This document shows positions 7,641 through 18,309 of a stretch of DNA of 21,416 nt, piece by piece. Under the pieces are notes generated by a model. The model ran no database searches and was not told where the DNA came from. It saw nothing but the letters and a program-made list of their open reading frames with translations. Both the position numbers and the translations under genes were made by a program. Source of the stretch: a virus (lineage: Duplodnaviria > Heunggongvirae > Uroviricota > Caudoviricetes). Each line of letters starts with the position of its first letter. The first letter of the stretch is position 1. Location: positions 1 through 21,416 of IMG/VR virus record IMGVR_UViG_2579778894_000023. One strand, given 5' to 3'.

Positions 7641-8048
7641 AATTATCTCCATTTTTACAAATGAATTTTGTCGATGCGGTGCCTGGTGCCTCCAGGTGAC
7701 GTTAACCAGTTAACAATTAACGCCGGATAATCCACCCATAACACTGATGCTTTTAACTGTGCCGCGTGCGCTTAGCCGCATTCACCGCATCACAAAATTC
7801 ACTTTAAAAAGGGGCGGCAGGGCAGCCACGGAGTAGAACTGATGCCGCCAAAGACTACACATAGCAATGTCGTTATTTACAACCGGAGGCGCACTCCCAC
7901 CATTTAAATTTAACAGACAAGACCGACTCTTTATGGATACCGGAAATGCGCCTTCGTGTTGTGCCCGGTTTTATTTCACCACCTCCGGGCTTTGGTGGCC
8001 TCGGCTATACCCCTACAGCAAGAATATTGAATTAATCCAATAAATGGT

Positions 8049-8507: not shown

Positions 8508-8927
8508 TTACTCCGGTGGGGGATTATCTTTAAGCCTGCCTCTCAAATATTTTTCTACATACTCATCGATTTCTTTTAGCCGGACTTCAAATAGCTCAAT
8601 CATTCGTTGTTGTTCTGAGCCCGGTAGCTGGTTAAACAACTCAAGAAGTTTTCGTTGGGATTCATTTAACCACAATTCAGAAGATTCCTGTTCTCCAAAG
8701 AGGAGCTCAGGAGGAGATATGCCAAGTGCCTTTCCCAATACGACAGCGTCATGCACTCCAACATTTCTGCTGCCCGCCTCATAGTTACCTATACGCGATT
8801 GCGTCCATCCGCAGATTTCAGCAAGTTTTCCTTGAGATAAACCAAGCTTCTGCCTGCGCTCTTTAAGACGCATTGCAATTTTGTCATTGAGCCTACTAGC
8901 GGCAATTTTTTCGTTTTCTTTTTCCAT
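8508..8927 (-). CDS. Prophage repressor, XRE-family helix-turn-helix (RacR/CI-like)
   Basis: 139 aa; HTH segment RQKLGLSQGKLAEICGWTQSRIGNYEAG; transcribed divergently from the Cro-like gene across an operator-rich intergenic region; no S24 peptidase domain. Confidence 0.85.
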   Translation of the reverse strand: MEKENEKIAASRLNDKIAMRLKERRQKLGLSQGKLAEICGWTQSRIGNYEAGSRNVGVHDAVVLGKALGISPPELLFGEQESSELWLNESQRKLLELFNQLPGSEQQRMIELFEVRLKEIDEYVEKYLRGRLKDNPPPE

Positions 8928-14961: not shown

Positions 14962-15184
14962 GAAGGAAACAAAACAGAAACAACAATTGCCGTTATCTGT
15001 TGTTACCATGGCAAGTAAACGTATCTCAGGCGAGCGCATTGCGCCGTTCTGACGCAGATAAATTAGCCTGGATAGATGGTGCTGGCAATAAAAAATAGCG
15101 TTTTCTTATCGGTGTCGGTAAGATTGCTGCGGGTGCTTGAGGCTGTCTGCCTCGGGCATGCCACTGTAAGGCAGACAGAGAAAA

Positions 15185-15285
15185 GCCCCAGTTAACATTA
15201 CGCGTCCTGCAAGACGCTTAACATTAATCTGAGGCCATATCTATGCGACACATAGAGATTAGCCTCTTACGGACCGAAAGGTCAA
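15185..15285 (-). ncRNA. Candidate sok-like antisense RNA and its promoter (approximate)
   Basis: Minus strand reads TTGACC (15285-15280), 18-bp spacer, TAATCT (15261-15256); predicted start ~15249 would make an RNA complementary to the mok-like start region. 3' end not defined. Confidence 0.25.
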
Positions 15286-15302
15286 GGAGAAGCAGGCTAT
15301 GA
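15243..15302 (+). CDS. Candidate mok-like leader ORF (19 codons) coupled to hok
   Basis: ATG 15243 lies inside the hairpin ctatg-cgaca-catag; ORF MRHIEISLLRTERSRRSRL ends in TGA overlapping the hok ATG (cTATGAag). Confidence 0.3.
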   Translation: MRHIEISLLRTERSRRSRL

Positions 15303-15454
15303 AGCAGCAAAAGGCGATGTTAATCGCCCTGATCGTCATCTGTTTAACCGTCATGGTGACGGCACTGGTAACGAGGAAAGACCTCTGCGAGGTACGAATC
15401 CGAACCGGCCAGACGGAGTTCGCTGTCTTCACAGCTTACGAATCTGAGGAGTAA
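15299..15454 (+). CDS. hok: Hok/Gef-family type I toxin (small membrane peptide)
   Basis: 51-aa ORF translated by hand: MKQQKAMLIALIVICLTVMVTALVTRKDLCEVRIRTGQTEFAVFTAYESEE, with the Hok signature LTRKxLCE(V/I)R...EVAAF-like...AYES. Below the ORF-track cutoff. Confidence 0.85.
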   Translation: MKQQKAMLIALIVICLTVMVTALVTRKDLCEVRIRTGQTEFAVFTAYESEE

Positions 15455-15511
15455 GAGACCAGGCGGGGGAGAAATCCCTCGCCACCTCTCATGTGTCAGG
15501 CATCCTCAACG

Positions 15512-15536
15512 CACCCGCACTAAACCCGCTTCGGCG
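15512..15536 (+). terminator. Rho-independent terminator of the hok mRNA
   Basis: acccgc-uucg-gcgggu stem with UUCG tetraloop followed by a T-run. Confidence 0.75.
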
Positions 15537-15729
15537 GGTTTTTTGTTGCGCGCTGAATGCGCAGGGTGAAAAATAACCATATATTTGATTATATACACAA
15601 CAAAAAATAAAAGTCATTGCACCTGCACATTAAATAATCAAATATACGACGTGAAATAAATATTTTTCAGATTAATATTTTTGTCTCTATGTGAATATAA
15701 CCGTTTGTACTTATAAACCTGGAGGCATC

Positions 15730-15942
15730 GTGGAAAAAATAAAGAAACTATTTAGTAGCAAATATGCAGTCATACGTCGTGATGACCTGTCAATTATAGT
15801 CGAAATGGATTACTTCCCTGAAACCAAAAAATCAATGATGTATCGTAATGGTCGAAAGGCAATTTTTTTACCGATGAGGGTAAGTGACATTATGGGAAAT
15901 GATAAACTGCTGGATGAATTGCGAGTCAGAGCATCCTGTTAG
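15730..15942 (+). CDS. Small hypothetical protein in an AT-rich moron
   Basis: GTG 15730 with SD GGAGG (alternative ATG 15691 without SD); 70 aa VEKIKKLFSSKYAVIRRDDLSIIVEMDYFPETKK...; upstream ~170 bp very AT-rich, compositionally unlike its neighbours. Confidence 0.45.
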   Translation: MEKIKKLFSSKYAVIRRDDLSIIVEMDYFPETKKSMMYRNGRKAIFLPMRVSDIMGNDKLLDELRVRASC

Positions 15943-16013
15943 TATTGGCATTAATTCTGGTATACTACATAACGGGCTGAACACCCATTCTACTGCGCCA
16001 GCGGAGAACTACG

Positions 16014-16613
16014 ATGGCGCATATACAACTGGTCAAACAAACCTCTTCAGGATTACTTCTCCCGGCGACGCCGGAGAGTTGCGATTTTTTGCATCAAATA
16101 AAAATAGGTGAGTGGATACACGCAGACTTTAAGCGTGTGCGTAACTACGCATTCCACAAGCGTTTTTTCAAACTCCTGCAACTGGGATTCGATTACTGGA
16201 CTCCGGTCGGTGGGGCGATCACGCCTCGCGAACGAAAACTGGTATCAGGCTTCGTTGATTACCTGTGCGAATCAGTAGGTCGGGAACATACACCAGCTCT
16301 GAGCGAAGCCGCAGAGCAATATCTGAATACAGTTGCAACACGCAGAACCCGGGATACGGCATTGCTAAAGTCGTTTGACGCTTTCCGCGAGTGGGTAACC
16401 ATTCAGGCCGGATTTTACACCGAGCATATTTATCCGGACGGTAGCCACGGGCGTCGGGCGAAATCCATCGCTTTTGCGAATATGGACGAAACCGAGTTTC
16501 AGCAGGTTTATAAAGCCGTACTGAATGTGCTGTGGAACTGGATCCTGTTCCGTAAATTCTCCTCTCCGGAGGAAGTCGAAAATGTGGCCGCGCAGCTGCT
16601 GGAGTTTGCGTAA
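16014..16613 (+). CDS. Nin-region phage protein (possibly DUF1367 family)
   Basis: 199 aa; SD GGAGAA; sits directly upstream of the YbcO-like gene and Q, as in nin regions. Family name is from memory and uncertain. Confidence 0.65.
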   Translation: MAHIQLVKQTSSGLLLPATPESCDFLHQIKIGEWIHADFKRVRNYAFHKRFFKLLQLGFDYWTPVGGAITPRERKLVSGFVDYLCESVGREHTPALSEAAEQYLNTVATRRTRDTALLKSFDAFREWVTIQAGFYTEHIYPDGSHGRRAKSIAFANMDETEFQQVYKAVLNVLWNWILFRKFSSPEEVENVAAQLLEFA

Positions 16614-17727: not shown

Positions 17728-18309
17728 ATGACAACTCAAATTTCTGTTGAAACTCTCTCCCCGATCACCCATAACCAGATTCCTGTTATTACCACCGAAC
17801 TTTTGGCGCAGTTGTACGGTGCTGAAGTTAAGAACATTCAAAATAACTACGCCAGAAATGCTGAGCGCTTTATTGAAGGAAAGCATTTTTTCAAAGTGGC
17901 TGGCGATGCCCTGATAAATTTGCGGGTAGCTTTAAACTACTCACAAAATTTGCAACCATCTTTAAGAGGGTTACAAATTTCCCCGAAAGCCCGCTCCCTC
18001 ATCCTCTGGACAGAACGCGGAGCAGCCCGTCATGCCAAAATGCTCGAAACCGATCAGGCGTGGGATGTGTTCGAAAAGCTGGAAGACTGCTATTTCAGAC
18101 AAAAGGATCCGTCAGCGCCAGTTTCATGCCAGAAAAGTTACGACACGCGAGTTCTCTGTTATCAGCGAGGCGGTGTCACTGTTTCCACAATTCAGTTGCG
18201 GGATGATGATATTGTTATTTCCCTTGAGTCATGGCTGGAACTGGCGAGAGCCAATGGTTGGTTTGTTGTTCGCAGAGATAAACTGGTGGAAAGGCTGATG
18301 CAGCTTTAA
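17728..18309 (+). CDS. ORF6N-domain DNA-binding protein (moron between Q and lysis genes)
   Basis: 193 aa; ITTELLAQLYGAEVKNIQNNYARNAERFIEGKHFFKV matches the recalled ORF6N pattern (LAELYGV..+.LNQAVKRN..RFPEDFMFQL). Confidence 0.75.
   Translation: MTTQISVETLSPITHNQIPVITTELLAQLYGAEVKNIQNNYARNAERFIEGKHFFKVAGDALINLRVALNYSQNLQPSLRGLQISPKARSLILWTERGAARHAKMLETDQAWDVFEKLEDCYFRQKDPSAPVSCQKSYDTRVLCYQRGGVTVSTIQLRDDDIVISLESWLELARANGWFVVRRDKLVERLMQL

Follow-up and report, generated by a model that had tools for sequence, protein, structure and literature searches.

A probable GfoA-family antirepressor gene without a LexA box in a lambdoid prophage of the Rac/Qin type

In the Gifsy prophages the antirepressor is encoded within an operon of the form dinI-gfoA/gftA-irsA, the middle gene of which is small and starts with GUG (Lemire et al. 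2011, PMC3121763). The short repressors of this class are not cleaved, and need an antirepressor (PMC3121763). FsoA of Fels-1 acts on Gifsy-2, and both cross-talk and control by means other than LexA have been documented (PMC3121763). In the Qin prophage of Escherichia coli K-12, Rem has been shown experimentally to be an antirepressor of DicA (Ragunathan & Vanderpool 2023, PMC10448788). Tum of phage 186 and AntC of N15, both controlled by LexA, and the Ant, KilAC and ORF6N types found in P22 and P1 likewise inactivate a repressor without cleavage, but are larger proteins than the one considered here.

The gene that we describe lies in a stretch of viral DNA of 21,416 nucleotides, all of which was analysed and which we call the window. 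Among lambdoid prophages it belongs to the Rac/Qin type. In the first part of the window the gene order is integrase, RecT/RecE, a short helix-turn-helix (HTH) repressor, YdaS/YdaT-like genes and replication genes; in the later part it is hok/sok, a 70-aa open reading frame (ORF), DUF1367, YbcO, a Q-like gene and the lysis genes. The DicF sRNA (7812-7863, minus strand; Rfam RF00039, 60.9 bits) is encoded 3′ of a DicA-like repressor gene, as in K-12 Qin. At its left edge the window has SraC/RyeA and SdsR/RyeB (463-607 and 2173-2351), which place the insertion site of the prophage beside ryeA/ryeB, and the RalA antitoxin sRNA (224 bits) is found near the integrase end.

To the left of the 70-aa ORF is a hok/sok type I toxin-antitoxin locus (15131-15454, plus strand), in which sok matches Rfam RF01794 with 104.7 bits (15131-15301) and the hokD coding sequence (15299-15454) matches Pfam HOK_GEF at 1.1e-22. 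The terminator scan places the intrinsic terminator of hok, with its T-tract, at 15522-15547 on the plus strand, the hairpin itself being called at 15522-15541. To the right, a conserved 5′ region and the irsA/DUF1367 gene extend from 15974 to 16613 on the plus strand. The coding sequence (16014-16613; Pfam DUF1367, 1.7e-98) starts 72 nt past the 70-aa ORF, and is followed by YbcO/DUF1364 and then by a DUF1133/Q-like gene. The ORF thus lies after the hok terminator and before the nin genes, as a preliminary description of this DNA had placed it. The terminator scan finds no terminator between 15942 and 16014, so the irsA/DUF1367 gene is probably co-transcribed with the 70-aa ORF, comparable to the arrangement in the Gifsy operon.

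Called mechanically, the ORF runs from 15691 to 15942 and has 83 aa. The supported start is the GTG at 15730, giving a protein of 70 aa (15730-15942, plus strand, with a TAG stop). A strong Shine-Dalgarno sequence, GGAGG, can be read at 15721-15725 on the plus strand, 4 nt ahead of the GTG, and the N-termini of the family align with this start. The same CDS is called by NCBI PGAP in an O157:H7 genome, where the identical protein is named 'hypothetical protein'. The product is the small basic protein that had been described, with a mass of 8.3 kDa, a pI of 9.6 and 15 K/R residues against 10 D/E. Its gene has a G+C content of 0.37 and a GC3 of 0.34, and the neighbouring hok and DUF1367 genes have G+C contents of 0.51-0.52, so that base composition bears out the statement that it is unlike the phage DNA around it. 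The repressor gene at 8508-8927, too, has less G+C than the genes beside it (G+C 0.43, GC3 0.37).

The reading frame is intact in all 26 of the 26 distinct variants of the ORF. Comparison with an allele of 86% identity gives dN/dS of 0.12/0.52 = 0.23, and of the 34 sites that vary 17 are at third codon positions. Conservation in the family reaches down to 30% amino acid identity across host genera, with R16, D19, P30 and R39 invariant. By these measures of sequence variation the ORF is under purifying selection.

The 70-aa protein has no Pfam family, including the Ant and ORF6N types, in the Pfam set searched, which lacked PF27490. Its AlphaFold model has a pLDDT of 81.8 and no solved or viral structural neighbour, so the structure prediction that had been proposed as a check provides no confirmation of a mechanism. 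All source names of homologues are 'hypothetical protein' except for two 45-aa fragments named 'bacteriocin', and as these are truncated copies we regard the name as an annotation artefact. A match to the GTP diphosphokinase YjbM (the small alarmone synthetase YjbM/RelQ) reaches 17.7 bits against an NCBIfam cutoff of 320 and is unsupported by the fold, and was set aside as due to chance. We found no paper that mentions WP_000411315.

To compare the protein with GfoA, we recovered the latter by searching IMG/VR with the published gfoA forward primer (PMC3121763). In 59 prophage contigs the primer marks the start of an 82-aa ORF that has dinI on one side and an irsA/DUF1367 homologue on the other, and the 3′ end of this ORF agrees with the reverse primer at 20 of 22 bases. 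GftA was taken from the Gifsy-2 record, where it agrees with its own primers. BLASTP of the window protein against GfoA gives an E value of 6e-5, and the two are connected through SPN3UB_0059, which matches the window protein at 3e-13 and GfoA at 2e-15. Both match phrog_1813, a family of unknown function, the window protein at 2.2e-32 and GfoA at 3.5e-11 over its full length. A family profile of 62 sequences, with the window protein first, aligns to GfoA in hhalign with a probability of 98.5% and an E value of 3.9e-15 over 75 columns. The same profile found only 49 proteins among 1.84 billion cluster representatives. These include representatives of the GfoA type (library-wide E ≤1e-3) and an intermediate that carries the RVTPPSD tail of GfoA.

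The position of the gene is shared as well. Searching phage genomes with tblastn, we find relatives of 30-52% identity in phages whose hosts are Salmonella, Citrobacter, Klebsiella or Aeromonas. Directly upstream of the homologue is dinI in SPN3UB, Chris1, pAEv1818 and ST846-OXA48phi9.1, and directly downstream of it is the DUF1367 gene in SPN3UB, pAEv1818 and ZC-S1_prp. The slot directly upstream of DUF1367/irsA is the same in every E. coli relative examined, and in Gifsy-1, Gifsy-2, SPN3UB and pAEv1818. The window gene and GftA start with GTG, and GfoA with TTG or GTG; the GTG start of the window ORF agrees with the GUG reported for the Gifsy antirepressor, and we count this in favor of kinship with GfoA.

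From profile comparison and gene position, the 70-aa protein is a homologue of GfoA, which serves Gifsy-1 as antirepressor. The likeness comprises homology over the full length, a size of 70-82 aa, a start codon other than ATG, a position in the nin region, outside the immunity region and directly upstream of irsA/DUF1367, and a prophage whose HTH repressor is short, non-cleavable and of the DicA/GfoR group. The two proteins differ in that they are only about 18-31% identical and in their pI, 9.6 for the window protein and 7.9 for GfoA. They differ also in what lies upstream: the GfoA locus has dinI and a LexA box, whereas the window has neither, and instead has hok/sok, a terminator and an AT-rich leader. 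The profile search that had been proposed therefore gives an answer where the preliminary description had the function as unknown, for the gene is a GfoA homologue at the position of GfoA.

No similarity is detectable between the window protein and GftA (PHROG 4847). GftA of Gifsy-2 is nevertheless comparable in its size class, its role (PMC3121763), its slot between dinI and irsA and its GTG start. FsoA, compared by description only, is of the same size class and role (PMC3121763), and shows that control need not be by LexA.

Rem requires a closer comparison. The slot between hokD and ydfU in K-12 holds rem, at the same place as the window ORF. Rem is also about 80 aa long, comes after the hokD terminator and ahead of the next gene of the nin region, has no LexA box, and belongs to a prophage with DicF near a DicA-type repressor. 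It is unlike the window gene in its leader, which at 51% G+C is not AT-rich, and in its next gene, the DUF968-type ydfU and not DUF1367. We considered whether the window ORF might itself be rem, given the shared slot and the 83-aa length of the mechanical ORF, but BLASTP finds no alignment of the two proteins. The DNA between the shared flanks is unrelated in the window and K-12. Direct alignment of the two profiles is collinear but not significant, with an E value of 0.044 and a probability of 1.2%. Rem and GfoA both match phrog_340 at about 1e-21, one member of the window family (P0115) carries PF27490 as do all Rem homologues, and a joint alignment with Rem is collinear with G, L, L and AG positions in common. 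The AlphaFold models of the window protein and of Rem both have the order helix, four strands, helix, the Rem model being a poor one (pLDDT 62). Through such indirect links the GfoA family may be distantly related to Rem of Qin. Since FsoA and Rem are also without LexA-dinI control, that feature defines GfoA and GftA and not the functional class.

The presumed target is encoded in the same prophage. The repressor gene at 8508-8927 (minus strand) encodes a short protein of the DicA/GfoR type, 139 aa long, to which Pfam assigns HTH_3 but not a peptidase domain. Aligned with DicA over the full length it shows 29% identity (E 2e-15), and its C-terminal LELFNQLP motif is common to the Gifsy repressors GfoR and GtgR. 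Eight relatives have enough flanking sequence for four genes to be compared with their window copies. The identities of repressor, antirepressor, Cro and irsA are, in that order, 100, 93, 100 and 97% in L081-L084; 98, 86, 100 and 96% in L074 and L075; 70, 78, 96 and 97% in L071; and 65, 56, 75 and 63% in L079, from Salmonella. In L071 the repressor and the antirepressor have diverged, and cro and irsA have not. Over the few independent lineages available, such co-divergence of repressor and antirepressor would be the pattern expected of a specificity pair.

The leader of the gene (15560-15729, plus strand) has a G+C content of 28.2%, which confirms the sharply AT-rich segment reported at about 15560-15730 and makes it the minimum of the window. 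The lowest value for any 200 nt of the 21.4 kb is 0.26, at 15571, about 4 standard deviations below the mean (0.475, sd 0.054). Among 60 relatives in IMG/VR the leader is about 96% identical. It contains an inverted repeat with arms of 16 bp, TATATTTGATTATATA at 15580-15595 and TAAATAATCAAATATA at 15631-15646 (no strand assigned), which is a candidate operator. The arms are 94% complementary, and an equally good repeat occurred in 2 of 1000 dinucleotide shuffles. The right arm is kept in leaders of the E. coli type, and overlaps the −10 element of a candidate promoter at 15617-15645 (plus strand), made up of a −35 TTGCAC (15617-15622), a spacer of 17 nt and a −10 AAATAT (15640-15645). Both the E. 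coli lineage and that of Salmonella have the block GTCATTGCA(C), and it is about equally far from the start codon in the two.

No sigma-70 promoter was found on the plus strand at the threshold of the consensus scan, and TTGCAC-17-AAATAT scores below it. The term 'promoter-like' used for the A/T tracts therefore depends on this conserved sequence, which we regard as a weak candidate for the promoter of the ORF. Two promoter-like sites on the minus strand (15617-15588 and 15670-15641, with 10 and 9 of 12 matches) point toward the 3′ end of hok. As 2.2 such sites are expected in shuffled sequences they are not significant, and are probably due to chance in AT-rich DNA.

We find no LexA site of the form CTGT-N8-ACAG in or near the leader. 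With a LexA position-specific scoring matrix (PSSM) the leader scores no more than 5.2 bits, where real sites have 15.5 bits or more, and among 139 loci, which are of either the window or the Salmonella type, none has a site of 15 bits or more. The matrix was made from E. coli SOS boxes, and was validated by its recovery of the sites upstream of dinI in Gifsy-2, SPN3UB, Chris1 and pAEv1818. In these four and in the GfoA locus the sites upstream of dinI score 25-28 bits. An E. coli allele that follows hok without dinI (P0011) has a site of 25.4 bits 27 nt upstream of the ORF, and a second allele without dinI (P0013) has a similar box. The boxes of the two alleles lie 24-27 nt before the start codon (9955-9974 in L071, about 900-925 in L077). 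L071 agrees almost completely with the window in irsA and in the C-terminal half of the protein, and departs from it in the protein's N-terminal half, in the leader and in the repressor.

Other means of control were considered. The palindromes of the immunity region, ATCACGAATCGTGAT and AACACAAGATGTGTT, are absent from the leader, and control by the prophage's own repressor was rejected on these grounds. A Fur box was sought in the window leader and gave 11 of 19 matches, which is the level of chance. In the minimum-free-energy fold of the RNA the Shine-Dalgarno sequence lies in a GUCUCUA:UGGAGGC helix, but with a z-score of 0.11 we rejected a hairpin or thermometer hiding it; its accessibility equals that of shuffled sequences, and the anti-Shine-Dalgarno positions are hypervariable in the Salmonella lineage. 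The silencing by H-NS that had been proposed is plausible for a leader of 28% G+C.

The orthologues of the Salmonella lineage (52-56% amino acid identity) have a Fur-box-like site just 3′ of the common promoter-like block, at about 3577-3595 in L003 and at about −88 from the start codon in L154-L226. Most of them match GATAATGATAATCATTATC at 14 of 19 positions (P of about 0.01-0.03 against shuffles), and the site in L220 does so at 17 of 19 (P<0.0005). To judge from these sites the Salmonella-lineage orthologue may be an iron-controlled antirepressor; we found no paper on a Fur-controlled antirepressor of this type. Two independent insertions of IS1 are found in the AT-rich leaders of relatives, at about 9100-9876 in L075 and upstream of the ORF in L086-L089. 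The TTGCAC block is kept with IS1 at −125 and removed with IS1 at −51 (five IMG/VR contigs). In L075 the InsA ORF can be seen, and the left arm of the inverted repeat is gone where IS1 is inserted.

We consider it probable that this prophage has its antirepressor in the gene, a GfoA-family member that has lost control by LexA and dinI. This is based on its homology, its position, the type of repressor resident with it, co-divergence and the absence of a LexA box. Once made, the 70-aa protein would bind the non-cleavable DicA-like repressor encoded at 8508-8927. The bound repressor would leave its operators, and the early operons would be derepressed, including the one that bears DicF. With DicF 3′ of the repressor gene in the layout of Qin, derepression should release it. 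As there is neither dinI nor a LexA box, expression must be set by the AT-rich leader, and the inducing signal would be something other than canonical SOS, or else the gene would be kept silent.

If this is correct, a probable induction switch has been identified for a Qin/Rac-like prophage carrying DicF, and phrog_1813, whose members are named 'hypothetical protein' apart from the two fragments, gains a testable function. The separation of the gene from LexA control raises the same question as Rem does, namely which signal induces these prophages. A ready comparative system for that signal is provided by the alleles, some of which have a LexA box, some a Fur-like box and some neither of the two. 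A more tentative extension, to which we would give about one chance in four, is that the leader of the antirepressor gene acts as a swappable sensor, in the form of a LexA box, a Fur-box-like site or an AT-rich leader with an inverted repeat. Induction here would then be by a specific signal other than SOS, through a DNA-binding protein or by relief of H-NS, and prophages of the DicA/GfoR type could choose their induction trigger through the antirepressor promoter.

The alternative that survives best shares the identity of the gene and denies its expression: the LexA promoter would have been replaced by non-functional AT-rich DNA, leaving an antirepressor in decay or permanently silent, and a prophage that cannot be induced through it. 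With no convincing promoter found the gene could be silent, no LexA box is present here or in the 139 related loci while the sister alleles P0011 and P0013 keep one, and IS1 has removed the leader in some relatives. Against decay are a frame intact in every variant and a dN/dS well below one, and a strong Shine-Dalgarno sequence is retained. The leader, too, is conserved and contains a non-random inverted repeat, and its TTGCAC block is kept in the Salmonella lineage. We therefore regard a decaying or permanently silent gene as unlikely.

A little less likely again is an antirepressor acting in trans, with the repressors of other prophages in the cell as its main targets and with control by a phage regulator in place of a host signal. 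FsoA is a precedent for both cross-talk and control without LexA (PMC3121763), and several lambdoid prophages reside in the E. coli strains with the cassette, where a single genome has up to 8 matching places. The gene co-diverges, however, with the repressor of its own prophage, and the immunity-region palindromes ATCACGAATCGTGAT and AACACAAGATGTGTT are not in the leader.

The preliminary description had read the locus as a moron, an independently acquired accessory gene possibly silenced by H-NS; on such a reading the product would act on the host and not in phage regulation. The distribution of the DNA agrees with acquisition. Part of our query is matched in 3569 of 5426 complete E. coli genomes, and at least 80% of it in only 173, among them O157:H7 and O55:H7, and it is these that have the cassette. 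The remaining matching genomes (about 3400) have only 15460-15547, the 3′ UTR and terminator of hok. The left border of the cassette is at 15547/15548, where similarity to K-12 stops, and similarity to K-12 and Gifsy restarts at about 15974, the junction sequence at that point being present in both K-12 and Gifsy-2. After the hok terminator, K-12 and O111 RM9322 have a phrog_340 (Rem-type) gene, and two other genomes pass from hokD straight to a phrog_1212/DUF968 module. Among relatives the left neighbour may be hok/sok, relE-HTH, PIN-Phd or an AAA/S8-peptidase pair, while leader, ORF and DUF1367 stay linked; the unit is thus mosaic, and mobile by recombination. Independent acquisition, as an exchangeable cassette with sharp borders, is in this sense upheld.

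As a moron the locus fares less well. Its composition fits, with a leader at the G+C minimum of the window and an ORF also below the mean, as do its presence or absence among otherwise similar prophages, the lack of a Pfam family, and the twofold insertion of IS1 in the leaders of relatives, which is typical of silenced AT-rich DNA. But the gene has no terminator of its own, and no plus-strand promoter at the scan threshold. It has significant, full-length homology to GfoA, it co-diverges with the repressor, and its position relative to irsA/DUF1367 is kept across phages of several host genera. This last comes close to the conserved sequence of related prophages that the description had named as contrary to its own reading. 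Homology and position together indicate that the cargo of the cassette is probably a phage regulatory gene and not an accessory one, against a dispensable function of benefit to the host, and a host-directed moron seems improbable to us. That the ORF is untranslated, and the region just a non-coding AT-rich spacer or RNA element, we dismiss: the fold that puts the Shine-Dalgarno sequence in a helix is no better than in shuffles, and the protein is conserved across host genera with four invariant residues, half of the sites that vary being at third codon positions and dN/dS being below one.

Some further observations concern the neighborhood of the slot and the rest of the window. The gene upstream of the antirepressor slot often belongs to a toxin-antitoxin pair (L071-L084 and L002; relBE and hokD in K-12), and in one lineage an AAA ATPase and an S8 peptidase are found there as a pair. 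A hok gene and an antirepressor of 94% amino acid identity are present in L070 (PP818812.1, 'Actinobacillus phage vB_Apl-pPE4'). Its leader aligns closely with the E. coli cassette, and the downstream block has gene sizes equal to those of DUF1367, YbcO and the Q-like gene in the window, which is unexpected in a phage whose label gives it a host in the Pasteurellaceae.

Between 17474 and 18309 the window has an isrK-like RNA (69 bits), a C4 antisense RNA (67 bits) and c4 a1b1 target elements. Directly 3′ of the C4/isrK-like RNAs is an ORF (17728-18309) that in related loci is named an ORF6N-domain protein. The RNAs and this ORF constitute a second, unrelated antirepressor-like module in the window, which we take to resemble the P1 c4/ant system and the isrK-anrP module of Gifsy-1. 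The ORF6N module could be the true inducer of the prophage.
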